DNA of 64,000 nucleotides from Jatrophihabitantaceae bacterium. Lineage in GTDB: Bacteria; Actinomycetota; Actinomycetes; Mycobacteriales; Jatrophihabitantaceae. Of the stretch, positions 11,995 to 27,729 are shown piece by piece. The position numbers were made by a program, and so were the translations under genes. Under the pieces are notes generated by a model. It was not told where the DNA came from, ran no database searches, and saw only the letters and a program-made list of their open reading frames with translations. How positions within the stretch are numbered: the stretch's first letter is position 1; the number at the start of each line of letters is the position of its first letter. Where the stretch lies: positions 15,780-79,779 of the forward strand of contig JBPCOI010000078.1 in the NCBI GenBank assembly GCA_051000395.1. Reading direction: 5' to 3'.

Positions 11995-12767
11995 ACGCCC
12001 GCCGCTCCGCCCGTCCGGCCTCTGCGACGGCTCAGGCGTTCGACCGGGTGCTCGCCGCAATCGGTCTGCTCGCGTCGAGCCCGCTGTCGGCACTGGCGGC
12101 CGTCGCGATCAAGCTCTCGAGTGAGGGACCGATTCTGTACCGCGCGTCGCGCGTGGGTCAGGGTGGACGGTTGTTCACCATGTTCAAGTTCCGCACCATG
12201 CACGTAGAGCGCGCCGGCCAGGCTGCCGTGATCACCGGAGCGGACGACCCGCGCGTGTTCCCGGCCGGCCGGGTGCTGCGCCGGTTCAAGATCGACGAAC
12301 TGCCCCAGCTGGTCAACGTGGTCCGCGGCGACATGGCGCTCGTCGGGCCGCGGCCGGAGGAGCCGTCGATCGTGCGCGAGCACTACGAACCCTGGATGCA
12401 CGAGACGCTCTGCGTCGCGCCGGGTATCGCCAGTCCCGGCAGCCTCGCGTACTACGCCGACGAGGCGGCACTGCCGCAGGATGCCGGCGAGGCGCAACGC
12501 AGGTATCTCTCCGAGGTGCTAGCCGGCAAACTCGCACTGGAACTCGTGTACGTACGCAACCGGTCATGGCGTTACGACGTCGAACTCGTGCTGCGCGCGC
12601 TGGCGGCGATCCTCGGCAGGCGCGACGTGTTCCCGGCACGCCAGGCCTGGGAACGGGCCGAGGCGAAGCGCCTGGCCGACACGTGGCACTGTTACCCGAA
12701 GCCGGGCGCGGAAGGCGACGTCGAATCGAACGCCGCCGCGCGCCCCCGCGGCGAGGCGGGCGGATGA
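11991..12767 (+). CDS. Initiating phosphoglycosyl transferase (bacterial sugar transferase, PglC/WbaP-C type)
   Basis: ATGA overlap with the previous gene. One N-terminal hydrophobic helix. PILYRASRVGQGGRLFTMFKFRTM and DELPQLVNVVRGDMALVGPRPE signatures. Confidence 0.9.
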   Translation: MNARRSARPASATAQAFDRVLAAIGLLASSPLSALAAVAIKLSSEGPILYRASRVGQGGRLFTMFKFRTMHVERAGQAAVITGADDPRVFPAGRVLRRFKIDELPQLVNVVRGDMALVGPRPEEPSIVREHYEPWMHETLCVAPGIASPGSLAYYADEAALPQDAGEAQRRYLSEVLAGKLALELVYVRNRSWRYDVELVLRALAAILGRRDVFPARQAWERAEAKRLADTWHCYPKPGAEGDVESNAAARPRGEAGG

Positions 12768-13648
12768 CACCGCGGCACGTCGTCCTCGTCGGCGCGGCAC
12801 GGTCCGGGACGAAGATCCTGCGCGAGGCACTCGCCGCCTCCTCGGGTTCGGGGCGGGTGCCCTACGACATCGGCTACGTGTGGCGCTACGGCAACGAGGG
12901 ACACCCGGACGACGCGTTGCGCCCGGAGTGCTCGAGCGAGAAGTCCGCCCGCTTCATCCGTCACTTCGTCGACCGTTACGCCGACGGGCAGCCGAGCGCA
13001 GTCATCGAGAAGACGGTGGGCAACACGCTGCGGATCCCGTTCGTCGCCGAGGTGTTGCCCGACGCCAGCTACGTCCACCTGATCCGCAACGGGGTGGACG
13101 TCATCGAGTCCACCCGCCGCCAGTGGACCGAACCCACCGACGTCCGGTACCTGCTCGCGAAGGCCCGGCACTTCCCGCTGCGCCTGGTGCCCGGTTACGG
13201 CGTGAAGTACCTCCAGTCACTAGCTCGGCGCCGCACCAGCGCCGAGCGGCGGGTCGGTTCGTGGGGACCCCGCTACCCCGGGATCGATGACGACCTGCGC
13301 CACGAGGACCTACTCACCGTCTGCGCCCGCCAGTGGCGCACCGCCGTGACGCAGGCGCGCGCCGACCTCGGCCGCCTCACGGCGCCGGTGACCGAGATCC
13401 GCTACGAGCGGCTGGTGCAGGATCCACGCGCCGAGCTGACGCGGCTGGTCGACTTCCTCGATCTCGACGTGTCCGCGGCCGGGCTCGCTGCTGCAGCCGC
13501 GTCCATCACGCCGGAGCGCCAGGACATCGGACGTTGCTCGCTGGACGCCGGGGAACTCGCCGTCGTGCAACGCGAAGCCGGGTCGCTGCTGGCCCATCTC
13601 GACTACCCCGCAGCGCTGGTCGAGAACGGCCCCCGTCACGAGCGCTGA
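12764..13648 (+). CDS. Sulfotransferase family protein (1 of 3)
   Basis: ATG 12764 in ATGA overlap with the previous stop. 5'-PSB loop VGAARSGTK. 3'-PB-like HLIRNGVDVIES. Confidence 0.75.
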   Translation: MTPRHVVLVGAARSGTKILREALAASSGSGRVPYDIGYVWRYGNEGHPDDALRPECSSEKSARFIRHFVDRYADGQPSAVIEKTVGNTLRIPFVAEVLPDASYVHLIRNGVDVIESTRRQWTEPTDVRYLLAKARHFPLRLVPGYGVKYLQSLARRRTSAERRVGSWGPRYPGIDDDLRHEDLLTVCARQWRTAVTQARADLGRLTAPVTEIRYERLVQDPRAELTRLVDFLDLDVSAAGLAAAAASITPERQDIGRCSLDAGELAVVQREAGSLLAHLDYPAALVENGPRHER

Positions 13649-13676
13649 GCGTCATCGCAGCCGTACCCCTCAACCC

Positions 13677-13682
13677 TAGGAT
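13677..13682 (+). promoter_or_regulatory. -10 hexamer TAGGAT, 6 nt before GTG 13689 (leaderless-type promoter)
   Basis: TAGGAT-gcacac-GTG. There is no RBS in the 40-nt gap after the previous gene. The same TAGGAT-N6-GTG arrangement recurs at 26680 and 36123. Confidence 0.4.
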
Positions 13683-13688
13683 GCACAC

Positions 13689-14780
13689 GTGCCACGACCC
13701 TCCACTCCGCCCGGGCGGGTGATCCTGTGCGGCGCGGTGCACGAGGCTGCGCCCACCCTGGACGCGTTGCTCGCCAGCGAGCTGGCCGACGTGGTCGCCG
13801 TCGTCACCGCATCGGAACAGGGCCTGCGGGGGTTGGCCGGCCCCGTGGACCTGGCCACCCCGGCCCGCGCCGCGGGCGCGGCGGTGATCCGCACCGACGA
13901 CGTCAACGATCCCGACATCGTTGCCCAGTTGAGCGCGCTACAGCCCGACCTGCTCGTCGTCGTGGGCTGGACGCGTCTGATCGGCGCCGAGCTGCTCGCG
14001 GTGCCGCGGCGCGGATGCGTCGGATTCCATGCCTCCCTGCTGCCCCGGCACCGCGGTCGCGCTCCGGTCAATTGGTCGATCCTGCGCGGGGAGACGGTCA
14101 CCGGCAACACGATGATGCTTCTCGACCCCGGCGCCGACACCGGCGACATTGTCGATCAACGCAGCACGGCCGTCACCGCCGAGGACACCTGCGCGACGGT
14201 GTACGTGCGAGTCGCCGAACTCGGCGTCCAGATGCTGCGCGATCACCTGCCCGCCCTGCTCGCGGGCACGGCGCCGCGCCGGCGACAGGATCCGGCGCAG
14301 GGCGACATCCTGCCCAAGCGGACTCCGGCCATGGGCGTCATCGACTGGGCCCGTCCGCCGCGAGATGTACACAACTGGGTGCGTGCCCTCACCGCGCCCT
14401 ATCCTGGCGCCTTCGGGGACTGGAACGGGCGGCAGGTGATGATCTGGCGCACCCGAGTGCCCGAGCCACACGCGCACTGCGGCAACGATCCCGGCCTGGT
14501 CCTGGACGTCGACGACGCCGGGATGCAGGTCGCAACCGCGGGAGGATTGGTGACGGTAACCAGCATGTCGTGGGCGGAGCAGACGCCGACAGCGGCGCCC
14601 GCGTGGTGCGCGGCGAACGGCCTGGGTCCCGGGGCGCGCTTCGGCCTGCCGGCGCCGGAACTGGCGCGGTGGGCGCGCGGCGAAGGACCGCGTCCACAAC
14701 CACAGGGCGTGCACGATGCGTCCGGCCCACGCGAATCGGCCGGCCGCCTTCGCGCGGACACTCAGCGGTCCGGCACATGA
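13689..14780 (+). CDS. Formyltransferase (Fmt/ArnA-N/sugar N-formyltransferase family)
   Basis: GFHASLLPRHRGRAPVNWSIL (HxSLLPxxRG) and DTGDIV catalytic Asp region. C-terminal Fmt-like domain. Confidence 0.85.
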   Translation: MPRPSTPPGRVILCGAVHEAAPTLDALLASELADVVAVVTASEQGLRGLAGPVDLATPARAAGAAVIRTDDVNDPDIVAQLSALQPDLLVVVGWTRLIGAELLAVPRRGCVGFHASLLPRHRGRAPVNWSILRGETVTGNTMMLLDPGADTGDIVDQRSTAVTAEDTCATVYVRVAELGVQMLRDHLPALLAGTAPRRRQDPAQGDILPKRTPAMGVIDWARPPRDVHNWVRALTAPYPGAFGDWNGRQVMIWRTRVPEPHAHCGNDPGLVLDVDDAGMQVATAGGLVTVTSMSWAEQTPTAAPAWCAANGLGPGARFGLPAPELARWARGEGPRPQPQGVHDASGPRESAGRLRADTQRSGT

Positions 14781-15445
14781 GCACGGTGGTGGTGGTGGCC
14801 GCCCACCCCGACGACGAGGTACTGGGCTCCGGCGGCACGCTCGCCCGGCACGTCGCTCAGGGCGACGAGGTCCATGCCGTCGTACTGTCCGACGGCGCGA
14901 CCAGCCGCTATCCGAGCGAGATGACGGGTGTGCTTGCCGAGTCGGCGCACAAGGCGGCTGCGGTGCTCGGTCTCGCCTCGGTGCGCGTGGGCGAGCTGCC
15001 CGACCAGCGGCTGGACACGGTGCCGCTCATCGAGGTGACGAACCAGGTCGAAGCCGTGCTGGACGAGCTGCGACCCGAGTTCGTGTACACGCACTTCCCC
15101 GGCGACGCGAACGTCGACCACGGCCTGACCGCCCGGGCTACCTGGACCGCGTGCCGCCCGTACGTCGTGCCGCGGCTACGGCGCTTCGCTGTGTTCGAAA
15201 CCCCGTCGTCCACCGAGTGGGCGTGGCCGCTCGCTGACGGAACGTTTCGTCCGGCGCTGTTCGTGGACGTCTCCGACACGCTGAACGACAAGCTCGCCGC
15301 GATGGAGTGCTACCAGAGCGAGCTGCGTGACTACCCGCATCCTCGGTCACTGCGCGCGTTAACCGAACGAGCCGCCTTCTGGGGAAGCAAGGTGGGCTGT
15401 GCCGCGGCCGAACCCTTTCAGGTGTTGCGTGAGGTCGAGCGGTGA
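14777..15445 (+). CDS. PIG-L/LmbE family N-acetyl-sugar deacetylase
   Basis: ATG 14777 in ATGA overlap. VVVVAAHPDDEVLGSGGTL motif. HFPGDANVDH metal-binding region. Confidence 0.85.
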   Translation: MSTVVVVAAHPDDEVLGSGGTLARHVAQGDEVHAVVLSDGATSRYPSEMTGVLAESAHKAAAVLGLASVRVGELPDQRLDTVPLIEVTNQVEAVLDELRPEFVYTHFPGDANVDHGLTARATWTACRPYVVPRLRRFAVFETPSSTEWAWPLADGTFRPALFVDVSDTLNDKLAAMECYQSELRDYPHPRSLRALTERAAFWGSKVGCAAAEPFQVLREVER

Positions 15446-15526
15446 GCAGCCCACCTCGCCGGCCAACTAGGCTACCCGCGAAAACGTCAGGCGATCTTGC
15501 CGAGAACCGATGCGAGGACTGAGTAC

Positions 15527-16267
15527 ATGGCTTCACCATCCACGGGGCGAACGAAGCTGCGCTACCGATGGTCGCACCGCAGTAGAGTTCACCGCGCTGT
15601 CGTCCGGAGCGCCAACCGCGTCCTGCCGCTCGTGCCATTCAAGCTGAAGTACGCCGCAACCGACGCCGTACGTAACCACAACCTTCCTTATCGCCTGCTC
15701 GAATCGACATCGGTGGCGATCCAGGTCGGGGCACCGAGGGACACCCTGCGGTCGGGGCGCTCACGGGCGATGGCGTTCGCGCGGCGCACGCGTCCGAACG
15801 GCAGATTGCTCGTCGTCGAGCCCGATGCGACGAGTTCGGCTGAGTTCCGCCGCACCGCCGAACGGCAGGGCATGGACCATGTCGTCGTGATCACCGCCGC
15901 GGCGTGGAATGAACGCAGCACCCTCGCGATCGAAATCGACCCCCAGCACCCGGCGACGAATTTCACCTCCGGCGCGGCGACTTACAGCGCCGAGGAGATG
16001 ACGCGCTTTCGCGAGGTCACCGTCGATGCTGTACCCGTGGACGAACTGATCGAGGAAGCCGGACTCGGTCACGTCGACCTCGTCAGCATCACGACCAACG
16101 GTGCCGAGCGGGAGATCCTGGCGGGACTCAAGCGCACCCTCGAACGCGACCGGCCCTACGTCTGCCTCGCGCGCACCGAGGATTCCTACTCCGAGCTGAT
16201 GGCCAATCTGGGTTACCAGCTGCTCGGTCAAGACGATCGCGGCTTCACGTTTCGGCACGGGGGCTGA
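15527..16267 (+). CDS. FkbM-family methyltransferase
   Basis: ATG 15527 with GAGGA upstream. LLVVEPDATS... and HVDLVSITTNGAEREILAGL correspond to the FkbM IDLLKIDVEGAE block. Confidence 0.7.
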   Translation: MASPSTGRTKLRYRWSHRSRVHRAVVRSANRVLPLVPFKLKYAATDAVRNHNLPYRLLESTSVAIQVGAPRDTLRSGRSRAMAFARRTRPNGRLLVVEPDATSSAEFRRTAERQGMDHVVVITAAAWNERSTLAIEIDPQHPATNFTSGAATYSAEEMTRFREVTVDAVPVDELIEEAGLGHVDLVSITTNGAEREILAGLKRTLERDRPYVCLARTEDSYSELMANLGYQLLGQDDRGFTFRHGG

Positions 16268-16272
16268 GCTCG

Positions 16273-17181
16273 GTGCTACCACAATTCCTGGTGATCGGCG
16301 CGATGAAGGCCGGTTCGACGACCATCTACGAGGACTTGCGCGCCCATCCGCAGATCTTCCTGATCGAGAAGGAACTGGACAGCTTCAATTCGCCGAGCAT
16401 CTCGACACCGACGGGACGGGCTCGATACGAGCAGCTGTTCGCGAAAGCCGCTCCGGGCCAGCTCCGGGGCGACGTGTCAGCCACCTACGCGAAACTGCCC
16501 GAGACCGACGGGCTCGCAGAGCGGGCCGCCACGGTGCTCGGCAGCGATTTCCAGGTGGTCTACAGCGTGCGAAATCCGGTGGACCGGGTGGTCAGCCAGC
16601 ACCACCACGAATACATGCGGGGAAAGATCACCCAGGCCTCGATCGACGACGCGGTACGAGAGGTGCCTCGGCTCATCTCGTACTCGAAATACGCCTACCA
16701 GCTCCGGCCGTTCGTGGACGCCGTCGGGCCTGAGAACGTGCACCTGATCAGGTTCGAGGACTACACGGCAGACCGGGCAACCGGCCTCGGCCGCCTGCTG
16801 GACTTTCTCGGCGTCGATCGAATCGTCGACGGTGCCGACCTCGACCGGGCCCACAACGTGAGCGAGGGCCTGCACATCGGTACCGGCCGGATCTGGCAGC
16901 TGACGCGCTCGGCAGCATACCGTCGAGCCCTTCGCCCGTTGATGCCCGAAAGGGTGCGCAAGCTGGGTCGCCGGGCCCTGCTGCCGACGGCACCTCCCCG
17001 GCCGGCGCCGCCGTCGCCCGCCACGGTCGATCGGATCATCGACGCCGTGGCCTCGGACCTGGACGCGTTGCGTTCGTCGTCCGTCGCGGTTCCGGAGCTG
17101 TGGGACCTGGAAGCCACCAGGCAGCGGTACCTGACCATCGCCGCGCGCTCAGACGAGCAGGTGCTGCCCCGCTCGGATTAG
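16273..17181 (+). CDS. Sulfotransferase domain protein (2 of 3)
   Basis: 5'-PSB loop FLVIGAMKAGSTT. 3'-PB motif VYSVRNPVDRVVSQ. Confidence 0.8.
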   Translation: MLPQFLVIGAMKAGSTTIYEDLRAHPQIFLIEKELDSFNSPSISTPTGRARYEQLFAKAAPGQLRGDVSATYAKLPETDGLAERAATVLGSDFQVVYSVRNPVDRVVSQHHHEYMRGKITQASIDDAVREVPRLISYSKYAYQLRPFVDAVGPENVHLIRFEDYTADRATGLGRLLDFLGVDRIVDGADLDRAHNVSEGLHIGTGRIWQLTRSAAYRRALRPLMPERVRKLGRRALLPTAPPRPAPPSPATVDRIIDAVASDLDALRSSSVAVPELWDLEATRQRYLTIAARSDEQVLPRSD

Positions 17182-17189
17182 CGCCCGGG

Positions 17190-18260
17190 TCAGTGGCGGG
17201 TCCGACCTGGTGTCAGTGCCTGGAAAATGTCGAGAAATGCACGCGCGTTGTCCTCCCAGGTGACCGGCCAGGTCCAGGGTTTGCTTCCCGGTGACCAGCG
17301 GCCGAGACCTTCGCGGATCACGTCTGCCAGCGCTGCCGTATCGCCGACCGGTACGAAGCTCGCGTTGCCTTGCGTTACCTCGCGGTGCGCCGGCAGATCG
17401 CTCAGCACCAGCGGGCAACCAACCGAACCTGCTTCTGCGGGCGTCATCGAGAACGACTCGAGGCCGGACATCAGCACCATTGCCGTCGCCCGTTCGTAGA
17501 TCCACTTGAGCTGTCGGCGATTCCCCACCCAACCGAGGTGGACGAGCTTGTCGGCGTGGATTCCGGCGAGCTGCCGGTGCTCCTCGACTTGTGTAGCGGT
17601 ATAGCCGCCGACAAGCACGAGATGCACGCCGTCCGAGGACCCCTCCTGTGACCGGGCCCAGCCGCTGACCACGTCGCTGACGCGCTTGTGCGGAGCCGCG
17701 CTCGCCACCGAGAGCAGGTACCTCTCGGGCAGGTGCTCGAACGGCACAGCGGCCTGCGGCCAATCCGGCGCCCCGCTGTGGATCACGCGCAGCTTGTGCT
17801 CGACACTCGGAACCGTGTCGACGACCTCCGCAGCCATGGACTCGGAAATGGCCACGACCACGTCGGCGCGGCGCATCGCCCAATGGTTGGCCTTCACCTT
17901 CCAGAACGGCCGTGACGCTACCGTCTCCGGCAGCTGCAAACCCACTCCGTAATAGTTGGGGTTGTGCAGGGTCAGCACGATCGGGGCACGGCTCGCCATC
18001 GGCGCGAAGTTCGCCGGGCAGTAGAGCACGTCGGCTCGTCGAAATGGCAACTGGACCTGCTCGTAGGCAAAGCGACGGGGCACGGAACCGACAGCAATCC
18101 GCTCGACCGCCCCCGGGAACGCGGTGTCCTTGATCCAGGGCGACACCAGCGTGTGCAGATCCAGGCTGGTGTCGACGCGGGCCAGCGCTGTCAGCTGCTG
18201 CTGCAGATACGTCACGCCGCCCCCGTGGCGCAGCGGCAGCGCGTTGACGAGAATCCGCAT
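17190..18260 (-). CDS. GT4 glycosyltransferase
   Basis: MRILVNALPLRHGGGVTY N-terminus. C-terminal Glycos_transf_1-like region (MSGLESFSMTPAEAGSVGCPLVLSD). Converges on the previous gene with only 8 nt between stops. Confidence 0.85.
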   Translation of the reverse strand: MRILVNALPLRHGGGVTYLQQQLTALARVDTSLDLHTLVSPWIKDTAFPGAVERIAVGSVPRRFAYEQVQLPFRRADVLYCPANFAPMASRAPIVLTLHNPNYYGVGLQLPETVASRPFWKVKANHWAMRRADVVVAISESMAAEVVDTVPSVEHKLRVIHSGAPDWPQAAVPFEHLPERYLLSVASAAPHKRVSDVVSGWARSQEGSSDGVHLVLVGGYTATQVEEHRQLAGIHADKLVHLGWVGNRRQLKWIYERATAMVLMSGLESFSMTPAEAGSVGCPLVLSDLPAHREVTQGNASFVPVGDTAALADVIREGLGRWSPGSKPWTWPVTWEDNARAFLDIFQALTPGRTRH

Positions 18261-18276
18261 GATCGAGCCCGGTTAG

Positions 18277-19467
18277 TTATCGCGCGTTCGTGGCGGCGGC
18301 AATCGTCGCGTCGATGACGCGAGCCACGTCGCCGTCTGACATCGCGCTGTAGATCGGCAGCGAGACCACGCGCCGGAACTGCGCCGTGGCCACCGGGAAG
18401 TCCTCCGGCGCATAGCCGTACTCGGACACGTAGTAACTGTGCAGGTGCAAGGGGATGAAGTGCACCGACGTCCCGATCCCGGCGGCATTGAGCTCCTCGA
18501 TGAAGCGGTCGCGTCCGATCGGCGCCCAGTCGTTGAGCCGCAGCAGATACAGGTGCCACGAGGTCTGCACGCCGTCGGGGACCGTCGGGCATTCGAGCGC
18601 ATCCAGCCTTGCGAACGCCCTCGTGTACGCCGCTGCGATCTCGGCGCGTCGGGCACTCATCTGCTCGGCACGCGACAGCTGGACGATGCCCAGCGCGGCC
18701 GCCAGGTCGGTGAGGTTGTACTTGTAACCGGCCGCGACGATGTCGTAGGCCCAGCTGCCGCCCTCGGCGTAGCGCGTCCACGCCTGCCGGCTCAGGCCGT
18801 GCAGGCTCATCGAGCGCGCGCGGTCCGCGACGTCCTGGTCCTCGGTGACGAGCATGCCACCCTCGCCAGTGGTGATCGTCTTCGTTGCGTAGAAGGAGAA
18901 GCAGGCGGTGCCCGGGATATCCCCGGGAAGGCTGCCGACCGGGCGGCCTCGGTAGGCGGACGGGAACGCGTGAGCGGCGTCCTCGACGACCGCCAGGCCG
19001 CTGTCGCGGGCCAGCGCCCAGATAGCGTCCATGTCGCACGGGACACCGGCGATGTGCACCGGGACGATCGCCCGCGGCCGCCCCTGGCGAGCGTCCAACC
19101 GAGCCTCGACGGCCTCGCGCAGCCGGCCCGGATCGAGATTGAGCGTGACCGGGTCGATGTCGACGAAGACCGGGGTGGCGCCGAGATAGCGCACCACCTC
19201 CGCCGTGGCCGCGAAGGTGTACGGCGACATGAACACTAGGTCGCCGGGGCGGACGTCGAGAGCCTCCAGGCTCAGGTGCAGGGCAGCGGTGCACGAGTTG
19301 AGCGCGACGGCGTGGGTGGCGCCCACCGATGCGGCGAACTCCTCCTCGAAGCGCCGGGCCTGCTGGCCGGTCGTCAGCCAGCGCGACTTCAGCACGTCGA
19401 CGACGGCATCGATCTCGCGCTGCCCGATATCGGGGACAGCGAACGGCAGCGGCTTGTCGGACGTCAT
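18277..19467 (-). CDS. DegT/DnrJ/EryC1 PLP-dependent sugar aminotransferase
   Basis: FAVPDIGQREIDAVVDVLKSRWLTTG, and SFYATKTITTGEGGML containing the PLP lysine. Confidence 0.92.
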   Translation of the reverse strand: MTSDKPLPFAVPDIGQREIDAVVDVLKSRWLTTGQQARRFEEEFAASVGATHAVALNSCTAALHLSLEALDVRPGDLVFMSPYTFAATAEVVRYLGATPVFVDIDPVTLNLDPGRLREAVEARLDARQGRPRAIVPVHIAGVPCDMDAIWALARDSGLAVVEDAAHAFPSAYRGRPVGSLPGDIPGTACFSFYATKTITTGEGGMLVTEDQDVADRARSMSLHGLSRQAWTRYAEGGSWAYDIVAAGYKYNLTDLAAALGIVQLSRAEQMSARRAEIAAAYTRAFARLDALECPTVPDGVQTSWHLYLLRLNDWAPIGRDRFIEELNAAGIGTSVHFIPLHLHSYYVSEYGYAPEDFPVATAQFRRVVSLPIYSAMSDGDVARVIDATIAAATNAR

Positions 19468-19478
19468 CGCGCCCTAAC

Positions 19479-22364
19479 CTAGCTGACCGGCTCGGGCACC
19501 GGTTGCGCCACGGGGGCGAGCACGAGATCGCCAGTGTCGCCGGTGTCGCTCGTGTCCTCGCCGAGCAGGTCCAGGCGCCGGTAGGCCACCCAGAACGGGA
19601 TCGTGGCGGCGACCTGGGCGATGGCAAGCCCCCAGGCCGCTCCTGACGCCCCGGCCGCGTAGGAGCCGGCGACCGCGCCCACGAGAACGAGCGCGCCGGT
19701 GACCAGAGACAGGCGCAGGATCGAGCCGGACCGGCGGCGTACCAGTAGGGCCACCATGGGTCCCTGCTGGACGCAGTTCGCGACGTTCCAGATGATGACG
19801 GGAAGCAGCAGCGACTTGGCGACGAACCAGTTCTGTCCGACCACCAGGCGACCGGCGTGGTCGGGTACGAGGTAGATCAGCAGGCCGAGCAACGTGACGG
19901 CCAGGCCGAGCACGATCGACAGGCCGGGGATGAATCGCCGCAGGCGCGGATCGCCGTTGCGGTAGAGCCTGCTGGCCTCCGGCACCCCGAAGCTGACGGC
20001 CGAGGACTGCACCGTCGTGCCGGGTGTCATCAGCGTCCGCGAGGCTGCCAAGCGGCCCAGCGCGACCGTGCCCGCGATAGCTCCGATCAACGCGAGCGAG
20101 ATGCGCCCGGCGACCTGCTGCGCGCTGTTTCCGGCGGCGATGCGGCTACCCAGGCTCCAGTGCTCGCGGGTCCAGGCCCAGGCCTGGTGCACTGCCGGCA
20201 GCAAGCGCGCCTGCGCCACGCCGACGACCACTCCGACCCCGGTCCCGGCCGCCCACAGCAGCAAGAGCAACGCGGTCGAGGCCGCGTGCGGCCTGAGTAC
20301 GAGGACGTACGCGAGCAGCAGCGTCGCGACCAGGCAGGCGCCGTCGTTGAACACTGCCCGCCACGGTCGGGCCACCGCGAAGAAGTAGACCCGCCAGCCT
20401 TCCTGCACGATGAGCGCCGGCAGCACGACCGCGCTCGCGAGGACCACCGAGCGGCTCTGCCCGTGCACTGCCAGCGAGCTGGCGGCGGTGATCGCGAAAG
20501 CGATCGTGCCGATCACGAGGCAGGCACCCAGCGCCTGCGCTCCGGCCCGCCGCTGCGCGGCGCGGGCGGCTGCGGAGAAGTTGATGCTCAGCGGGGCGAG
20601 GATCAGCGACTTGAGGATGACCTTGACCAGGAACGCGCCGGTGTAGGCGAGCGTGAACTCGCCCACGTGGCTCACCGACAAGTAGTGCAGCGCCAGGAAC
20701 AGGACCACGAAGTTCTGCAGGCTGGACAGGGCCTCGTCGGTGAAGGCCGCGATCGCGCGTCCCCGCGCCCCGCGCAGTGCGTGCGCGGCCAGTCCGCCGC
20801 CGGGGACGGGATGGAAGGCGTCCCAGCCATTGGGGCCAGGATCGAACAGACTGTCCGGCCACGCTGGGCTGTCCACGCCGAGCGCGTGCATTGTGGCCGG
20901 TGCGGCCGGCGCCTTCGGCGCGGGCGCTTCGACCGGCTGCGCCGGCGAGGTCCGTGTCGGGGCGGTGAGACCGGGTGTGGCAGCAATCGGCGCGTGCGCT
21001 GCCCGCCGCTTCGAGAGGAAGTACGTCACCAGCACGAATGGCAGCAGCAGCAGCAGGCGCTGGATGTTGCGGTCGGTCCAGGTCGCGGTACCACCCCACG
21101 CGAGGTCACTGATGCTTCCGACCAGAATGGCCAGGCCCACGAAGCTATACACGTCCCGTTGGCTGATCAACGGCTTGCCGATACGCCGCTCGAGTCGGTT
21201 GTCGAGCCAGCGGACGGCCCAGCCGAGCACCGGGATCATGAGGATCAGGCCGAACCAACCGAAGTTGTAATACCACTCGCCTTGTGGCATGCACGGCATC
21301 GACAGCTTCGTCGTTATCGTCTCGGGGTGCAGATCGAGGGCGAGGACCCGGCCGAACTGCAGCGGCTTGTGCGGCCACAACTGCCGCGGCACGATCACGA
21401 TCACCTCGGCGAGCAACGTCGACCCGCCACCCCCGGTCAGGTGCTCGTGGAGCAACTGTCCGACGGTCGCAAGCGGGTTCACCAAGGAACCCAGACCTGA
21501 TGCCGACGCCTGCACGGTGTTGTTCGTCGCGCTGGCCAACCTCTGCTGTCCGATCGTCGCGAACAGCGCCAGCGTGGGTAACACGGTGAGCACGGCGATC
21601 GGTTTCACCCGGGTCCGCAACCGATACTGCGCGAGCACCACGGTGGCGATCACCAGCGTCGCGAGCCGCAACCTGCCGTATCCGGAGAAGACGACCAGGT
21701 AGTAGACGATGAACACGCCGCCCGCCAGACAGGTGCGCACCGGTGTCTGAAGTGCCTTGATACCGCCGCTGAGCAGCAGCGACGAGGCGAACATGATGAC
21801 ACCCACCTCGGCCGCACAGATGGTGAGACCGCCGAGAGCCGGCCCGGTTCGGTTGAGCGTGGCACCTACAAGGAACAGGATGGTGCCCACGAACCGCAGA
21901 CTGGTTGCCTCACCTAGCGAGATCGGCGGACGCACCACGTGCGCAACGGCGCCCGAGCGCATCGACCGTCGCCAGAAGAGCAGGTACATGGCGGCGGTGG
22001 AGGCATAGATCACCAAGCCCGCTTCGAGGATGCTGCCACGCGTTGTGGCGGGCGGAACCTGTCCGGCCCAGTACCAGGCTCCGCAGCCGACCATGATTCC
22101 GGCGGTGATGCAGTACACCCCCGCGGCCGAGACGCGGCTACCCCCGTGCGTCACGAAAGCCGCGATGCCCGCGGCGATTGCGGCGATGGCCAGGATGCGC
22201 AGTGCGAGGATGTCGTTGCCGCTGTTGGCGATCGCCAGGACTACCGGTGGCACGGCGAGGGAACTCAACTCGACCGGCAACCGCCCGATCCCGTGCCTCG
22301 GCTGGCCTGGCTCGGGGTCGGGTCGCGCGGCAGGTCGTTCGCGCGGCAGTGACGGCGCAACCAC
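19479..22364 (-). CDS. Single ORF fusing a Wzy-like repeat-unit polymerase (N-half) to a MOP/Wzx-like flippase (C-half)
   Basis: 961 aa and uninterrupted. N-half has ~10 TM plus a loop with PRQLWPHKPLQFG (oligosaccharide repeat-unit polymerase-like). A Pro/Ala linker follows (aa ~455-495). C-half has ~12 TM starting ...SSLQNFVVLFLALHYLSVSHVGEFTLAY. Internal in-frame ATG at 20891. Confidence 0.7.
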   Translation of the reverse strand: MVAPSLPRERPAARPDPEPGQPRHGIGRLPVELSSLAVPPVVLAIANSGNDILALRILAIAAIAAGIAAFVTHGGSRVSAAGVYCITAGIMVGCGAWYWAGQVPPATTRGSILEAGLVIYASTAAMYLLFWRRSMRSGAVAHVVRPPISLGEATSLRFVGTILFLVGATLNRTGPALGGLTICAAEVGVIMFASSLLLSGGIKALQTPVRTCLAGGVFIVYYLVVFSGYGRLRLATLVIATVVLAQYRLRTRVKPIAVLTVLPTLALFATIGQQRLASATNNTVQASASGLGSLVNPLATVGQLLHEHLTGGGGSTLLAEVIVIVPRQLWPHKPLQFGRVLALDLHPETITTKLSMPCMPQGEWYYNFGWFGLILMIPVLGWAVRWLDNRLERRIGKPLISQRDVYSFVGLAILVGSISDLAWGGTATWTDRNIQRLLLLLPFVLVTYFLSKRRAAHAPIAATPGLTAPTRTSPAQPVEAPAPKAPAAPATMHALGVDSPAWPDSLFDPGPNGWDAFHPVPGGGLAAHALRGARGRAIAAFTDEALSSLQNFVVLFLALHYLSVSHVGEFTLAYTGAFLVKVILKSLILAPLSINFSAAARAAQRRAGAQALGACLVIGTIAFAITAASSLAVHGQSRSVVLASAVVLPALIVQEGWRVYFFAVARPWRAVFNDGACLVATLLLAYVLVLRPHAASTALLLLLWAAGTGVGVVVGVAQARLLPAVHQAWAWTREHWSLGSRIAAGNSAQQVAGRISLALIGAIAGTVALGRLAASRTLMTPGTTVQSSAVSFGVPEASRLYRNGDPRLRRFIPGLSIVLGLAVTLLGLLIYLVPDHAGRLVVGQNWFVAKSLLLPVIIWNVANCVQQGPMVALLVRRRSGSILRLSLVTGALVLVGAVAGSYAAGASGAAWGLAIAQVAATIPFWVAYRRLDLLGEDTSDTGDTGDLVLAPVAQPVPEPVS

Positions 22365-22521
22365 GACTGATCACCAACCTCCGCTGAGGGCGTGGTTTAG
22401 GCGCCTTGCCGGGTCGAGCGCAGCGCCGCACCTTCGCGGCCGAGCGACCAGACGGGTCGCGCCGAAGCAGATCCTAGCGCGGGAAATCCAGCGCTGCCGC
22501 CCGAGATCGGGAAGCGGAGGC

Positions 22522-24066
22522 CTAGCCGTCCGGGTCGCCTGATCTCTGTGCGGGTGTGAGCGCGTCCGGGTGCGGGGTTCCGGTCAGCGTCGTGCGCGGA
22601 TCGACGGGCAGGAAGGTCGGTGCGGTAGGCGACTGCCGGAAATCGAAATCGGCGCTGAGATCACCGAGGATCTTGGCGTTCTCGCGAACGTCCGGGCGCG
22701 GATCCGGCCGACCGTCGGTCGCGGGATCGATGCGCTGGCCGCCGAGGAAGTCGTCCTCGATGAACTTGTCGTATGCGTCGAAGGACAGGATCTGATGATC
22801 GACGTAGCCCTTCTTCGCATACGGACTGATCACGATCCCGGGGACTCGCAGTCCGTAGCCGTTCTGGTCCACCGTCGGCGGCACGACGTGGTCGTAGAAG
22901 CCGCCCCAGTCGTCCCAGGCGAGGAAGATCGCCGTCGATTTCCAGTCCGGACCGCGCATGACGGCATTGATCAGGCTCGTCACGTACGACTGGCCGTAGC
23001 TGACCGGCGAGGGCGGGTGCTCGCTGTTCTGACCGGAGGGGATCACCCAGCTGACTGCGGGCAGGGTGCCGCTCTTGGCCGCGGCGTAGAACCTGGCGGT
23101 CGACTGGATGTTGCCTTCCTGCTTGTCTGCCCGGACCGTGTCGAAGTACGGCAGCGGATTCCAGTAACCGGGAGTCCTGGCGTTCTGCTTGACCGGCGCG
23201 CAGGTGATCGCCGAGTCGTTCTGGCAGTCGGGCTCGATGCCGTTGGCGACGTAGTACGCCCACGACACGTGATGCCGGTGCAGGAGGTAGGTGAGATCCG
23301 TCCAGGCATAGATCGGACGTGAGCCGGCGCCACCCTTGACGGCTGCGGCGTTCGGGAGGCCGGGGTCCGGCGGTACGCCCGGATTGACGTCCTGGTTCAC
23401 GCAGGTCATCGGCGCGTTGTGCCGCCCGCATTGTGCCGACCATTCGGACACCATGAACAGGTGGACGGGCAGGCTGTAGGAGGCGTCCGGCTCGAACATG
23501 TGGTCTTGCAGCACGTAGTTCCTGGCGTAATACCAGTAGTTGGGGATGTCGCTGCCGGTGTGGTAGCCCATCACGTCGGGCTGATTGGAGTTGGTGCAGG
23601 CGGGGTCCTGCGGATCTCCGCACCCATGCTTGGCCAACGCGAGTTCGGTGTTGAAACCGTCCATCTTCCCGCCGTGGATGTCGGCTGCTGCGTCGTTCGC
23701 GCCGTGCGGTCCACCGCCGTTGACGTCGGCGTGATCGGGATAGGGCCGCACGCACGGCTTGTTGTCCGCGGCGATGACGCAGACGGTGGGCTTGCCGTTG
23801 GCCATTCGGATGCCGTCGGCGCCGGGGTAGGTGCCGAAGTAGCTGTCGAACGAGCGGTTCTCCTGCATGATCATGATGACGTGCTTGATCACGTGGATCC
23901 CGCCAGTGGCGCCCGTCCGCGCCGACCCGAGGACGCGGGGCCCCGGTTCTGCCGCACCGGACGCGGACCCACCGGCGGGCTGCCCCGAGGAGGCCGTGCA
24001 TGCCGCGGCAAGCAGCATCAGCGCACCCGCGACGGCGAGGCCGGCCCTGCTGCGAATGCGAATCAC
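22522..24066 (-). CDS. Phosphoesterase-family lipoprotein (phospholipase C / AcpA acid phosphatase family)
   Basis: GTG 24066. Lipobox [30 protein letters not shown] signature. The upstream part of the 669-aa track ORF is discarded. Confidence 0.85.
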
Positions 24067-24165
24067 CCACCAATCCCGTCGAGCACGCGAGTGATCACCG
24101 TAGCCGCTGGCAAACGCGAGGCGGGACGGGGTCTGCTCACATCGCGGAGCACAGCGTCGGTTCCG

Positions 24166-24534
24166 GTGTGGGAGGGCGACGGGGTGACCGCGGCGGAGAT
24201 CGACGCGTATCTGGCGCAACTGCCAGAGCCCAAGCGTGGCACGTTGCAGGCAGTGCGCGAGTCGATCCGTCGGGTGCTGCCGGAGGCCGAGGAAGGCATC
24301 TCGTATCGGATGCCGGCATTCCGGTTGGACGGCAAGGTCGTTGCGGGGTTCGCCGCGTTCACCAACTACGTGAGCTACTTGCCGCACAGCGGGTCGGTGC
24401 TCGCCGAGCTCGCGTCGATCTTGGGCGGCTTCGAACAGACCAAGAGTTGGCTGCATTTCCCGGTCGAGACCCCGCTGCCCGACGCGCTCGTCGCGCAACT
24501 CGTCGAGGCCAAGCTGCGCCAGCTCGGACACTGA
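24166..24534 (+). CDS. DUF1801 (YdhG-like) small protein
   Basis: Last ~120 codons of track ORF 23419-24534. [43 protein letters not shown]. Start at GTG 24166 or 24184 is uncertain. Confidence 0.55.
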
Positions 24535-24621
24535 TCGGTGGGTCGGCCCGAATCGAATAGGCCCGCACGGCGAGCGCCCCGACTACGACCGCCACCGACG
24601 TCGATCTCGTAGCCACTGCGG

Positions 24622-25491
24622 TCAGTACCCGTACCGCGCCCGCAGGGGCAGCGTTATCGCCTCGACGAGGCGACGTTCGCGCGCCGGCATCTGCCCCTTC
24701 CACCGGTCGTCGATCTGAATGGCACGGCTGGGATCGAAGCGCCACGGGTTGCCGGCGATGGCGTGCCCGCCTGAGACAGCCTCGACCGCCGGTGGCGGCT
24801 TCAGGCCGAGCCGTTCGCAGCTCGCGTACGGATCGGCGACCAGGTCCTCGTAGCGGATGCGGGCCGCCTGGCGGGGCGATTGCCTGGCCATTCGCTCGAA
24901 CGCCAGGTTGTAGCTCAGCCAGTTGACCGCCGAGCGAGCGGGCGCGTGCTGCGGCATCAGCTGCCCGCTCATCGACGGATCGGGCTTGGGGCGGCTCAGC
25001 GAGAAGGCGACCGCCCGCGGATCGCGTACCAGCTGGAGCACCCGCAGGCTCCTCGGCAGCCGATCGGCGACGACGACCGTGGACGCGACCTTCGAGCTGT
25101 CGACCAGCGCGCTCGCTCCGCTGACTGCCGTGATCGCCTCCTCGGTCCTGCGCCGCAGCTCCACGGCGTCCGCCGGCACGAGCGCACTGAGGCCGCGGAC
25201 GATGGTCGCGCGCTGCGACGGCTCGCCGGACTCCACCCGGGCCGCCTCGGCAGCGGACGTCAGGCCGGTCCGGCCGAGCACGAGGTCCTGCACCGGTCCC
25301 CAGACCGGACACTCACGCAACACCACGCCGCAGGTGCACAGCCGGCCGTTGACGAACGATCTCCAGAGCAGGTGCAGTTCCCCGGCGTTGAAGCCGCCGG
25401 TGGCCAGTGAGACCAGGCCAGCCAGCAGCGTCGAGCCCGAGCGGACCGATCCGCCGATGTACCACAGGGGCGGCGTGGCGACGCTGGGCAT
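24622..25491 (-). CDS. Sulfotransferase family protein (3 of 3)
   Basis: ATG 25491 with AAGGGA RBS. 5'-PSB loop GGSVRSGSTLL. 3'-PB motif LQLVRDPRAVAFS. Confidence 0.7.
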   Translation of the reverse strand: MPSVATPPLWYIGGSVRSGSTLLAGLVSLATGGFNAGELHLLWRSFVNGRLCTCGVVLRECPVWGPVQDLVLGRTGLTSAAEAARVESGEPSQRATIVRGLSALVPADAVELRRRTEEAITAVSGASALVDSSKVASTVVVADRLPRSLRVLQLVRDPRAVAFSLSRPKPDPSMSGQLMPQHAPARSAVNWLSYNLAFERMARQSPRQAARIRYEDLVADPYASCERLGLKPPPAVEAVSGGHAIAGNPWRFDPSRAIQIDDRWKGQMPARERRLVEAITLPLRARYGY

Positions 25492-25557
25492 CGAGTCCCT
25501 TTCGTGCGCGAGGATCGGGGGCGGACGGTGCGCTCCCGGCGGCACGTGAGGATAGCG

Positions 25558-27621: not shown

Positions 27622-27729
27622 GAACACCTGCGCTGCGGACACGCTTCACCACCCAGCTTCCTCACGGGTTTGCCTGTTATCTTCCGTGAGTTGATCTCTG
27701 TACGCAGACGACCGGAGGTGCGAGCACGC

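Follow-up and report, generated by a model that had tools for sequence, protein, structure and literature searches.

Three Divergent Sulfotransferase Genes in a Candidate Sulfated Surface-Glycan Locus of a Jatrophihabitantaceae Bacterium

Results

Sulfotransferase Genes of the Locus

The window, a stretch of 64,000 nucleotides from a Jatrophihabitantaceae bacterium, contains three intact genes for PAPS-type sulfotransferases: ST1 (12764..13648) and ST2 (16273..17181) on the forward strand, and ST3 (24622..25491) on the reverse strand. Their third-position G+C (0.83–0.89) supports coding. An earlier note on this DNA had recognized them by PAPS 5'-phosphosulfate and 3'-phosphate motifs, and all of these are present: GAARSGTK (residues 10–17) and IRNGVDVIES (107–116) in ST1, GAMKAGSTT (9–17) and VRNPVDRVVS (99–108) in ST2, and GSVRSGSTL (14–22) and VRDPRAVAFS (155–164) in ST3. 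The three proteins are as divergent from each other as that note had claimed (pairwise BLASTP E > 0.07), and no transmembrane segment was predicted in any of them.

ST1, a member of the PF13469 clade, matched Pfam Sulfotransfer_3 at 5e-20 (73 bits; cutoff, 27), and the PDB matches to its family profile were CurM-ST, TPST, and StaL. Among 27 ST1 homologues, GAARSGT, EKTVGN, H105, R108, and S116 are invariant. A longer version of the gene (12566-13648) appears in the mechanical list of open reading frames, but the start is better placed at the ATG at 12764 than at 12566, since the former overlaps the stop codon of the upstream gene (GGATGA). This upstream gene encodes the priming phosphoglycosyltransferase (PGT; see below), with which ST1 is therefore translationally coupled. 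Clustering at 90% identity divides the ST1 family into more than 375 groups, and on almost every contig of at least 6 kb its genes lie in a cassette FnlABC-GT4-ST1-DegT-PGT-PglF, in most cases adjoining a gene of the GT4a family (see below). The cassette is one conserved arrangement, present in many phyla, in contigs with a G+C content from 28 to 72%, and cultured Solwaraspora, for example Solwaraspora sp. WMMD1047, is among its carriers. No description of it was found in the literature searched, and the core of the cluster recurs, uncharacterised, across many bacterial lineages. Although sulfated polysaccharides had been described in the earlier note as rare in bacteria, judged by genes alone loci of this kind are not rare.

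ST2 is a sulfotransferase of the heparan-sulfate type that matched Pfam Sulfotransfer_1 and Sulfotransfer_3 at 1e-12 (48 and 49 bits, respectively). Its PDB matches by sequence were 3rnl (1e-9) and 3-OST-3 (6e-8), and its AlphaFold2 model (pLDDT 93.1) gave 3rnl, 3-OST-1/3/5, and NDST1 as top Foldseek matches. Residues K12, K33, R100, and S108 are invariant in the family and E34 nearly so; E34 is a conserved acidic catalytic candidate, aligning with the glutamate of xEPHFF in 3-OST-3. The gene starts with a GTG located 6 nt past the stop codon of the FkbM methyltransferase gene, so that two of the sulfotransferases, ST1 and ST2, are translationally embedded, as proposed before.

The Sulfotransfer_3 match of ST3 was borderline (27.4 bits against a cutoff of 27). 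Its AlphaFold2 model is confident (pLDDT 93.6), with the sulfotransferase fold also found in the model of ST2, and its best Foldseek matches were OLS-ST, TPST1/2, and CurM-ST (E about 1e-6), placing it in a CurM-ST/TPST-like clade. Moreover, G14, G19, T21, E38, R156, D157, and R159 do not vary across 36 sequences of the family, and E38, a conserved acidic catalytic candidate, aligns with the Glu of ELHLL in the CurM and OLS sulfotransferases. The model, the structural matches, and the invariant motif residues confirmed ST3 as a sulfotransferase despite its Pfam score; HMM search had placed ST1 and ST2 over the Pfam thresholds. A longer version of this gene is also listed (24622-25545), and its start is better placed at the ATG at 25491, since the N-termini of 35 homologues agree with it.

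Genes for Sugar Supply, Transfer, and Tailoring

A membrane-anchored UDP-GlcNAc 4,6-dehydratase of the PglF/WbpM/CapD type is encoded at 6795..8636 (forward; Polysacc_synt_2, 1e-101; CoA_binding_3; four transmembrane segments), and it would catalyze the first step to a 4-amino-4,6-dideoxy-HexNAc. The locus also codes for a DegT/PseC/ArnB-type nucleotide-sugar 4-aminotransferase (18277..19467, reverse; DegT_DnrJ_EryC1, 4e-122; PseC, 3e-111; ArnB-type, 2e-103) and for the PGT, a small PglC/WcfS-like polyprenyl-phosphate phosphoglycosyltransferase with a priming role (11991..12767, forward; Bac_transf, 3e-48; TIGR03025, 4e-54). Three genes correspond to the UDP-L-FucNAc pathway: those for an FnlA/CapE-like UDP-GlcNAc 4,6-dehydratase/5-epimerase (31156..32301, reverse; Polysacc_synt_2, 3e-92; Polysacc_syn_2C; TIGR04130 FnlA, 7e-131), an FnlB/CapF/WbcJ-like reductase (30056..31159, reverse; Polysacc_synt_C, 5e-45; Epimerase; NF047837, 1e-66), and a non-hydrolysing UDP-GlcNAc 2-epimerase in the FnlC/CapG role (9452..10777, forward; Epimerase_2, 1e-88). 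The TIGR00236 wecB match of this epimerase (235 bits; cutoff, 210) begins at residue 62, and its true start probably lies downstream of 9452.

Two GT4 glycosyltransferases are encoded: GT4a, of the WcaI family (10777..11994, forward; Pfam GT4 domains; NF007640, 3.5e-35), a probable L-FucNAc transferase and conserved partner of ST1, and GT4b (17190..18260, reverse; Glycos_transf_1, Glyco_trans_1_4). Downstream of ST1 lie genes for a sugar N-formyltransferase like Fmt and the N-terminal domain of ArnA (13689..14780, forward; Formyl_trans_N, 3e-33; Formyl_trans_C, 2.5e-18; NF005414, 6e-61; ArnA, 2e-50), a BshB/MshB-like de-N-acetylase of the PIG-L family (14777..15445, forward; PIG-L, 4e-27; BshB1, 4e-23), and the FkbM-family methyltransferase (15497..16267, forward; Methyltransf_21, 1e-11; TIGR01444, 60 bits with a cutoff of 37.7). 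The first two are joined by an ATGA overlap, and the same pair occurs in one related locus (L090).

Polymerisation, Export, and Neighbouring Genes

The earlier note had described a Wzx/Wzy/Wzc locus. Wzc, a PCP-2b chain-length/tyrosine autokinase extended at its C-terminus by a long proline-rich stretch (32302..35184, forward; TIGR01007, 149 bits with a cutoff of 108; Wzz, GNVR, and P-loop domains), and a Wzb-like low-molecular-weight phosphotyrosine phosphatase (35429..36064, reverse; LMWPc, 2e-19) are the only firmly identified members of this machinery. Wzy and Wzx would reside in a 961-residue fusion protein with 16 transmembrane segments (19479..22364, reverse), whose N-terminal half is a weak Wzy match (TIGR04370, 1e-5, below its cutoff) and whose C-terminal half is a putative Wzx-like flippase by topology (hhalign against a PF01943 protein: probability 20%, E 1e-3). 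In one related locus (L002), the two halves are separate genes.

A phosphoesterase of the PLC/AcpA family, with an uncertain role in the locus, is encoded at 22522..24531 (reverse; Phosphoesterase, 2e-63), and no counterpart was seen in loci L002-L005, L089, and L090 (see below). Three paralogous genes code for anchored proteins: A (8737..9522, forward), with an N-terminal membrane anchor and a presumably extracytoplasmic domain of about 200 residues, and B (25558..26571, reverse) and C (26692..27621, forward), which were recognized by paralogy (E 1e-66 to 1e-70 with A) and transmembrane prediction. Paralogue A has no Pfam or PDB match, and its family, which is uncharacterised, is represented by only 84 clusters among 1.84 billion proteins. 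A Tachylectin and DMFA2_C protein with one predicted transmembrane segment (27670..30009, forward; DMFA2_C, 1e-61; Tachylectin, 3e-21) is a possible glycan-binding accessory of uncertain membership in the system. The locus lies in a conserved chromosomal core region (dnaK, PBP, and rpsF-ssb-rplI-dnaB), and a gene for a DUF4012 protein is also present.

Related Loci and PAPS Genes

Orthologues of each sulfotransferase (47–58% identity) are found in syntenic actinobacterial glycan loci (L002, L003, L004, L005, L089, and L090), which have two to four sulfotransferase genes each. As noted earlier, genes for PAPS synthesis are absent from the window: a domain scan of its G+C-supported open reading frames detected no cysD/N/C or APS kinase domain. 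In contrast, such genes adjoin the cluster in metagenomic relatives (cysN and cysD in L003, APS kinase in L005, and cysD/N in L148). ST2-family genes adjoin APS kinase genes in loci of Planctomycetota and Acidobacteriota (L008-L010, L013) and cysDN in another (L055). The gene identities, the PAPS-binding and catalytic motifs, the operon structure, the synteny, and this linkage of PAPS genes in relatives are established here. Syntenic orthologues and PAPS genes beside the clusters of relatives strengthen the case for a sulfated surface glycan, the candidate product put forward in the earlier note.

Discussion

We consider it likely that a Wzy-dependent surface heteropolysaccharide locus under Wzc/Wzb control spans the region from about 6.8 to 36 kb and that its product is sulfated by up to three sulfotransferases. 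From the genes present, that product is most likely a sulfated amino-sugar glycan. We infer the sugar identities (from family-level matches under the NCBIfam equivalog cutoffs), the order of the steps, the acceptor positions, and the sulfate on the product as follows. The heteropolysaccharide would be built of N-acylated amino-deoxy sugars. The PglF-like dehydratase and the DegT aminotransferase, with or without the formyltransferase, would yield a UDP-2-acetamido-4-amino(or formamido)-2,4,6-trideoxyhexose, and the small phosphoglycosyltransferase would load the trideoxyhexose onto undecaprenyl phosphate. FnlA/B/C would supply UDP-L-FucNAc, and the two GT4 enzymes would elongate the lipid-linked unit. 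ST1, ST2, ST3, the FkbM methyltransferase, and the PIG-L de-N-acetylase would modify either the unit itself or the nucleotide sugars that precede it, on the cytoplasmic side because PAPS is available only there. Finally, the fused Wzy/Wzx-like protein would flip and polymerise the unit.

One or more of the sulfotransferases might instead form an N-sulfate (sulfamate), which we regard as improbable. Either ST2 would act on an amine exposed by a PIG-L or CE4 deacetylase, as a two-protein analogue of animal NDST, or ST1 would act on the DegT-made 4-amino group, replacing the missing PglD-type N-acetyltransferase. The first route is consistent with the position of ST2, in sequence and fold nearest to the heparan-sulfate 3-OSTs and the NDST1 sulfotransferase domain, but the 3-OSTs, which are closer to it than NDST, are O-sulfotransferases. 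In L002, L004, L089, and a distant Acidimicrobiales locus (L033), the ST2 orthologue has a CE4 deacetylase gene directly beside it, the window and L090 contain PIG-L and/or CE4 genes, and a deacetylase occurs in 6 of 12 loci with ST1- and ST2-type genes vs. none of 37 ST1 cassettes without ST2. However, this association is limited to one actinobacterial clade and uncorrected for phylogeny; no deacetylase was detectable with the ST2 homologues of Planctomycetota and Verrucomicrobia or in L003, by single-sequence phmmer, which distant deacetylases may escape. Moreover, gene adjacency does not separate N- from O-sulfation, and no bacterial glycan N-sulfotransferase was found in the literature searched. 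For the second route speaks the fact that most cassettes have ST1 flanked by GT4a and DegT/PGT, and that many of these cassettes lack a hexapeptide N-acetyltransferase or formyltransferase. Against it, pathways ending in an unsubstituted 4-amino sugar such as AATGal are well known, and such a sugar requires no additional N-substituent.

Equally improbable in our view, the product, still sulfated, could be a secondary cell-wall glycopolymer anchored to the wall, or a short glycan attached to proteins or lipids, with another biological role. Priming transferases of the small PglC type and sugars resembling bacillosamine are characteristic of protein glycosylation and of wall polymers, and the priming enzyme and sugars proposed here would fit; so would the three anchored uncharacterised proteins, the DUF4012 protein, and a setting in the conserved chromosomal core rather than on an island. 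Against this, the Wzy-like polymerase, the Wzc autokinase, and the Wzb phosphatase indicate that a long polymer is assembled by the capsule/EPS route, and no LCP ligase or oligosaccharyltransferase domain was present among the window reading frames scanned.

Least probable is that ST3 is a mere neighbour of the glycan genes acting on a protein tyrosine, a lipid, or a small molecule: the enzymes closest to it in structure modify acyl-ACP or protein tyrosine and not sugars, it lies among window-specific genes (an uncharacterised paralogue and the phosphoesterase) outside the conserved core, and more distant homologues, such as one in Winogradskya humida (37%), are outside glycan loci. Its fold clade says little on the acceptor, however, since ST1, firmly tied to glycan cassettes, shows the same CurM/TPST-like PDB matches. 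Its closest informative orthologue (50%, L005/L006) is located immediately after Wzy_C and before cysN in a glycan cluster that is syntenic, ST2- and ST3-type genes are direct neighbours in L004, L061, and L064 and close to each other in L044, and ST3 is upstream of, and on the same strand as, the Wzy/Wzx-DegT-GT4 genes.

The preferred product, a sulfated Wzx/Wzy-type heteropolysaccharide, has parallels in known systems. The synechan (xss) cluster of Synechocystis sp. PCC 6803 directs a Wzx/Wzy-dependent extracellular polysaccharide and has two sulfotransferases of distinct subfamilies, its sulfate having been chemically shown at about 2 per 8-sugar unit (PMC8205485). Both clusters combine a Wzx/Wzy-type pathway with more than one kind of sulfotransferase. 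However, synechan contains neutral hexoses and rhamnose and involves eight glycosyltransferases, a Gram-negative envelope, and an OPX protein, whereas the window locus would use L-FucNAc and a 4-amino-trideoxyhexose and has two glycosyltransferases, a small priming transferase, and three sulfotransferases, alongside genes for deacetylation, formyl transfer, and methylation; regulators of the XssQ/R/S kind were not seen in it.

A sulfated Wzx/Wzy polysaccharide in actinomycetes is not a new idea, as one has been proposed for wps-1 of Actinoplanes missouriensis (PMC13390465). This Wzx/Wzy/Wzz cluster, predicted in 2026 to produce a sulfated EPS, has a methyltransferase and two sulfotransferases of different families, one heparan-sulfate-like, and both sulfotransferase genes are needed for normal sporangium formation (PMC13390465). 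It differs in having GT2, GT26, and GH26 enzymes and a kinase-like protein, without FnlABC, DegT, or PglF amino-sugar genes; on this gene content, rather than on sequence comparison, the two clusters are analogous, not orthologous. No Actinoplanes protein was among the ST2 homologues found.

The rhizobial NodH, NoeE, KpsS, and LpsS are likewise PAPS-dependent and sulfate GlcNAc or fucose of Nod factors, capsule, or LPS. NoeE and NoeI sulfate and methylate fucose, a pair that parallels ST1 and the FkbM methyltransferase. However, ST1 matched the NoeE model only partially (16.5 bits; cutoff, 500), and the rhizobial enzymes have other acceptors and cluster contexts, with no relation at the orthology level. 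NodH belongs to PF13469, and for KpsS a fucosyl sulfotransferase activity is described (PMC11625862).

The sugar supply of the locus is shared with several capsule and O-antigen systems. The cap5/8 (CapD/E/F/G/L/M) locus of S. aureus and the O11 (FnlABC) locus of P. aeruginosa are L-FucNAc loci, and S. sonnei (WbgX/Y/Z) and B. fragilis PSA (WcfR/S) have AATGal modules. Shared elements are FnlA/B/C and the combination of a PglF/CapD-type dehydratase, DegT, and a small Bac_transf priming enzyme. We know of no sulfotransferase gene in any of them, whereas the locus described here has ST1 as an insertion between its GT4 and DegT/PGT genes.

Finally, ST2 shares with animal 3-OST-1/3/5 and NDST1 the fold, the PSB-loop lysine, the Glu catalytic-base position, and the 3'-PB motif, at 16–26% sequence identity. 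Unlike those enzymes, it is bacterial, soluble, and composed of a single domain, with about 100 additional residues forming a helical region at the C-terminus, and the de-N-acetylases (PIG-L, CE4) that accompany it in its actinobacterial clade are separate proteins.

Organization of the Locus

Since the window has about 70% G+C, genes were called by third-position G+C, and the values obtained for the ORFs of the three candidate sulfotransferases ST1 (12764-13648, + strand), ST2 (16273-17181, + strand) and ST3 (24622-25491, - strand), 0.83-0.89, confirmed them as real coding regions. Longest-ORF starts at 12566 (ST1) and 25545 (ST3) were rejected, and those at 12764 and 25491 preferred, on the basis of gene overlap and of the N-termini of homologues. 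ST1 and ST2 are the sixth and tenth genes of an operon transcribed in the + direction. It opens with genes for a PglF-like membrane 4,6-dehydratase, an anchored protein belonging to a group of uncharacterized paralogues (8737-9522), a WecB/FnlC-type 2-epimerase, a glycosyltransferase of family GT4 (WcaI family) and a small priming phosphoglycosyltransferase (PGT; Pfam Bac_transf, 3e-48); after ST1 come an ArnA-N-like formyltransferase and a PIG-L de-N-acetylase (13689-15445, + strand), an FkbM methyltransferase and ST2. A converging series on the - strand comprises a second anchored paralogue (25558-26571), ST3, a PLC/AcpA-type phosphoesterase (22522-24531), a 961-aa protein with 16 TM segments (19479-22364), a DegT aminotransferase and a second GT4. 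To its right lie the third anchored paralogue (26692-27621, + strand), a Tachylectin/DMFA2_C protein (27670-30009, + strand), FnlB followed by FnlA, a Wzc tyrosine autokinase (32302-35184, + strand) and a Wzb phosphatase. The dehydratase, 2-epimerase, both GT4s, formyltransferase, de-N-acetylase, methyltransferase, aminotransferase, FnlA and FnlB were assigned by Pfam/NCBIfam. The ST1 start overlaps the stop of the priming transferase, the PIG-L start overlaps that of the formyltransferase by 4 nt, and only 6 nt separate the methyltransferase stop from the ST2 start, so that ST1 and ST2 are translationally embedded in the operon, as the earlier note had proposed for two of the sulfotransferase genes.

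FnlA, FnlB and FnlC (= CapE/F/G), which make up the UDP-L-FucNAc pathway, are all encoded in the window: FnlA is the best model for its gene (436 bits; equivalog cutoff 730), the WbcJ/FnlB-type reductase scored 225 bits (cutoff 500) and the WecB-type 2-epimerase 235 bits, above its cutoff of 210; the trio is also syntenic with ST1 in many other loci. A role in sulfation for the phosphoesterase and the Tachylectin protein was rejected as unsupported, both being absent from the related loci examined. Each anchored paralogue (8737-9522, +; 25558-26571, -; 26692-27621, +) has a membrane anchor at its N-terminus and, in addition, a conserved domain some 200 aa long. None of the three had Pfam or PDB matches, and their domain fusions were uninformative; the family forms only 84 representative clusters among 1.84 billion proteins, and homologues occur in L004, which has two copies, and in L090, both related loci (L-numbers denote loci on other contigs or genomes carrying sulfotransferase homologues). 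Just past Wzb (36129-41709) lie genes for a GDSL/SGNH hydrolase, an anchored protein and an OpuAC-type betaine/choline ABC transporter, for which no evidence of a link to the glycan locus was found. The locus is flanked by core genes: dnaK, a PBP gene, rpsF-ssb-rplI and dnaB. DnaK (152-2041, - strand) and the class A PBP (44860-47190, + strand) are the sole members of their 90%-identity clusters among about 15 billion proteins, which places the organism in an actinobacterial lineage that has been sampled sparsely.

ST1, ST2 and ST3 Are Divergent Sulfotransferases

The three proteins had been described as mutually divergent sulfotransferases carrying PAPS-binding motifs, and HMM searches, sequence alignments and, for ST2 and ST3, structural comparison upheld this description. 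In Pfam searches, ST1 matched PF13469 (Sulfotransfer_3; 73 bits), ST2 matched both PF00685 (Sulfotransfer_1; 48 bits) and PF13469 (49 bits), and ST3 matched PF13469 with 27.4 bits, just over the cutoff of 27; precomputed PF13469 and/or PF00685 matches are also on record for homologues of each protein. The 5'-phosphosulfate P-loop (xK/RxGS/TT) was found near each N-terminus exactly where it had been placed (GAARSGTK in ST1, GAMKAGSTT in ST2, GSVRSGSTL in ST3), its residues varying little or not at all within each family alignment. The 3'-phosphate motifs (R...S past the central sheet) were likewise where they had been placed; their residue pairs R108/S116 (ST1), R100/S108 (ST2) and R156/S164 (ST3) show complete or at least 90% conservation and correspond in alignments to the motif of 4gox, 3rnl and 3-OST-3. 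Pairwise BLASTP among the three gave no alignment (E > 0.07), and no membrane segments were predicted in any of them.

ST1 was placed by its family profile, which matches CurM-ST, TPST and StaL; in the alignment of this highly conserved family (mean column identity 60%), GAARSGT, EKTVGN, H105, R108 and S116 are invariant. The ST2 and ST3 models have the sulfotransferase alpha/beta fold, with TM scores of 0.5-0.7 to their top sulfotransferase matches in Foldseek. For ST2 (AF2 model, pLDDT 93.1) these were the bacterial sulfotransferase 3rnl, heparan-sulfate 3-O-sulfotransferases and NDST1, which occupied all of ranks 1-20 except rank 17 (CurM-ST). The ST2 family retains the P-loop Lys12 (invariant), Lys33-Glu34 at the catalytic-base position, Arg100 and Ser108; when ST2 is aligned with 3-OST-3, K33-E34 falls on the Glu of its xEPHFF segment. 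By its 5'-phosphosulfate-binding lysine, the position of this Glu and the closest fold of its model, ST2 thus appears to match the heparan-sulfate-type sulfotransferases (3-OST/NDST clade).

Given its score of 27.4 bits, ST3 was considered as a possible false positive. This was rejected on three grounds: the homologue search returned 111 homologues, the majority with precomputed PF13469 matches; the AlphaFold2 model had a mean pLDDT of 93.6; and in Foldseek its closest PDB folds were the OLS and CurM sulfotransferase domains and tyrosylprotein sulfotransferases (E ~1e-6). In a 36-sequence alignment, G14, G19 and T21 of the P-loop, G37 and E38 of GELHLL, and R156, D157 and R159 of the RDPR motif are invariant. 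The same 36 sequences share invariant C52, C54 and C61 (CxC...C) and H243; since these lie outside the PAPS motifs, they suggest a structural metal site, undescribed for the related CurM and TPST enzymes.

ST1 Belongs to a Widespread Cassette

The ST1 family comprises more than 375 clusters at 90% identity. Cultured strains are represented in it, among them Micromonospora sp. DSM 115978 and Solwaraspora sp. WMMD1047; the cassette was read in the latter, in the order DegT, PGT, FnlA, FnlB, FnlC, GT4, ST1, Wzy_C, FkbM, a 427-aa protein without Pfam match, and PglF. When metagenomes were scanned with the ST1 profile, 80 loci were found, and in nearly all those of at least 6 kb ST1 lies between a WcaI-type GT4 and DegT and/or a small priming transferase, usually with FnlA/B/C and PglF nearby. 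This conserved flanking across contigs makes ST1 a core component of a widespread cassette. Contigs with the cassette (L092-L172, from metagenomes and Solwaraspora) span 28% to 72% G+C, and by this recurrence a sulfotransferase is a fixed part of a glycan module (FnlABC-GT4-ST1-DegT-PGT-PglF) spanning many phyla. The window's locus is a more elaborate form of it, with ST2, ST3 and the formyltransferase/PIG-L pair in addition; the pair is found in the same order, also overlapping, in L090 (3912-5494, - strand). In the literature searched, no description of the FnlABC-GT4-ST1-DegT-PGT cassette was found, nor anything relevant on sulfotransferases together with FucNAc or O-antigen.

Close relatives of ST2 are few. 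Apart from a 99% identical copy in assembly GCA_030155765.1, the nearest proteins are metagenomic and 56-57% identical, followed by one at 54% named as from a Sporichthyaceae MAG; among the matches listed in an ST2-profile scan of the genome collection, the best species representatives were at most 44% identical and came from Planctomycetota, Acidobacteriota and Verrucomicrobiales. For individual genes, the relatives with a name that came closest were from a Sporichthyaceae MAG, Micromonospora, Solwaraspora and Actinopolymorphaceae. The contigs with ST2 orthologues (L002, L003, L004, L089 and L090) all contain the same kind of cluster, with FnlA/B/C, GT4, Bac_transf, an ST1 orthologue, FkbM, DegT, GT4 and ST2, often adding a fourth, PF00685 sulfotransferase; L004 additionally carries ST3 fragments. 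In a cluster of this kind (L005/L006), the gene immediately after Wzy_C encodes the closest informative ST3 orthologue (50% identity).

PAPS Supply in Related Loci

Domain scans found no cysD/cysN, APS kinase or other sulfate-activation gene in the 64-kb window, in agreement with the earlier note. Such genes were found next to the orthologous clusters of related loci: cysN and cysD lie 8-10 kb from the ST2 orthologue in L003, cysN comes after the ST3 orthologue in L006, and cysD/N are directly upstream of DegT-PGT-ST1 in L148. In L005, the ST3 orthologue is followed by a cysN fragment, a UDP-glucose dehydrogenase, a TauE permease and an APS kinase-LMW phosphatase fusion. Among more distant members of the ST2 family, genes in Planctomycetota and Acidobacteriota MAGs have an APS kinase gene as neighbour, and one in a Sphingosinicella genome has cysDN. 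Of the evidence available, this physical linkage to PAPS genes, seen in several independent lineages, speaks best for use of PAPS by these enzymes in vivo. In the L005 fusion (15093-16919, - strand), the partner of the APS kinase domain (195 bits) is a low-molecular-weight phosphotyrosine phosphatase domain, so that one protein links PAPS synthesis to a Wzb-type regulator of polysaccharide export.

Export Machinery

The locus had been described as of the Wzx/Wzy/Wzc type. This held for Wzc, which matches TIGR01007 with 149 bits (cutoff 108) and has Wzz and GNVR domains, and extended to the Wzb-type phosphatase (LMWPc 2e-19), both assignments being firm on their profile matches; Wzy and Wzx, resting on weak ones, are only probable. 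The latter two would correspond to the halves of the 961-aa protein (19479-22364, - strand), which are joined by a 60-aa Pro/Ala-rich linker and are separate adjacent genes in L002 (10891-12210 and 12207-13523). The multi-TM N-terminal half gave weak matches to TIGR04370 (24.7 bits; cutoff 40) and PF14296 (E 0.014), and its counterpart by position in L005 is a PF04932 Wzy_C protein. The C-terminal half, with roughly 10 TM segments, had no Pfam match at E <= 10 and a weak collinear hhalign match to a PF01943 (Wzx) protein (probability 20%, E 1e-3). The Wzc homologue (32302-35184, + strand) is 960 aa long, with about 480 residues past the kinase domain that include a proline-rich, extensin-like stretch (residues 593-705).

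Proposed Biosynthesis of a Sulfated Surface Glycan

The sulfotransferase motifs and fold, the syntenic orthologues and the PAPS-gene linkage in relatives support the interpretation of the earlier note that the locus would direct synthesis of a sulfated surface glycan. From gene identities, motifs, operon coupling, synteny and this linkage we infer the following pathway. The PglF-like dehydratase and DegT would form a UDP-4-amino-4,6-dideoxy-HexNAc, which the formyltransferase may N-formylate, and the small transferase would load the amino sugar onto undecaprenyl phosphate. UDP-L-FucNAc made by FnlA/B/C would be used by the WcaI-type GT4, and the second GT4 would add a third residue. The soluble sulfotransferases, together with the methyltransferase and the de-N-acetylase, would act at the cytoplasmic face, the side on which PAPS is available, before export and polymerization of the unit by the Wzy/Wzx-like fusion and Wzc/Wzb. 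The combination of an ArnB-like aminotransferase, an ArnA-N-like formyltransferase and a deacylase recalls the formylation/deformylation cycle of L-Ara4N (ArnA/ArnD), and by this analogy the deacylase could possibly re-expose an amine.

A more specific reading, which we consider unlikely, is that this locus and its relatives make a glycan with an N-sulfated amino sugar, by either of two routes. In the first, ST2 and a separate de-N-acetylase (PIG-L here, CE4 in relatives) would together be the bacterial equivalent of animal NDST, divided between two proteins. In L002, L004, L089 and the distant Acidimicrobiales locus L033, the ST2 orthologue has a CE4 deacetylase gene immediately next to it, and PIG-L occurs in the window and in L090, which also has CE4. 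Deacetylase genes were present in 6 of the 12 loci with both ST1- and ST2-type genes and in none of the 37 ST1 cassettes lacking ST2 (Fisher's exact p = 7e-5, uncorrected for phylogeny and based on single-sequence searches). Together with the heparan-sulfate-type fold of ST2, this linkage allows an NDST-like route of deacetylation and N-sulfation. In the second route, ST1 would replace the PglD-type N-acetyltransferase of a bacillosamine-type pathway and N-sulfate the 4-amino group: ST1 occupies the position where PglD would be, and many cassettes are without a hexapeptide acetyltransferase. The literature searched contained no bacterial glycan N-sulfotransferase or N-sulfotransferase of amino sugars. 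If the second route were true, the cassette would specify, across phyla, a class of sulfamate-bearing or zwitterionic sulfated surface glycans not recognized before.

The broader interpretation, a sulfated surface glycan, concerns a conserved but uncharacterized ST1 cassette present in hundreds of sequence clusters, on contigs that differ widely in base composition; should the prediction be correct, sulfated amino-sugar glycans would be common on bacterial surfaces. It would also provide soluble bacterial carbohydrate sulfotransferases, possibly including one N-sulfotransferase, of potential use for glycosaminoglycan-like materials. Since the cassette has cultured carriers, the question is directly testable.

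Comparison With Known Systems

Most accounts of sulfated polysaccharides treat them as a trait of animals, algae and cyanobacteria. The L-FucNAc sugar logic of the window is that of S. aureus cap5/8 and P. aeruginosa O11, and its 4-amino sugar logic is that of S. sonnei and B. fragilis PSA; no sulfotransferase is known in any of these loci.

A 2024 review names six bacterial genera reported to make sulfated polysaccharides, places NodH in PF13469 and describes KpsS as a fucosyl sulfotransferase (PMC11625862). The one genetically and chemically defined bacterial case is synechan, with two sulfotransferases in a Wzx/Wzy cluster (PMC8205485). For actinomycetes, the only case in the literature searched is a prediction of 2026 made without chemical data: in Actinoplanes missouriensis, the wps-1 Wzx/Wzy cluster, predicted to make a sulfated EPS whose sulfate is unverified according to the paper, has two sulfotransferases, one of them heparan-sulfate-like, both needed for sporangium formation (PMC13390465). 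An actinobacterial Wzy-type locus with sulfotransferases has thus already been put forward, as a prediction (PMC13390465). To it we add three to four distinct sulfotransferases in each locus, a chemistry based on amino sugars, and an ST1 cassette that spans phyla and has cultured carriers. Compared by description, the GT2, GT26 and GH26 of wps-1 differ entirely from the glycosyltransferases of the window, which would give actinobacteria a second example, of different structure and with three sulfotransferases.
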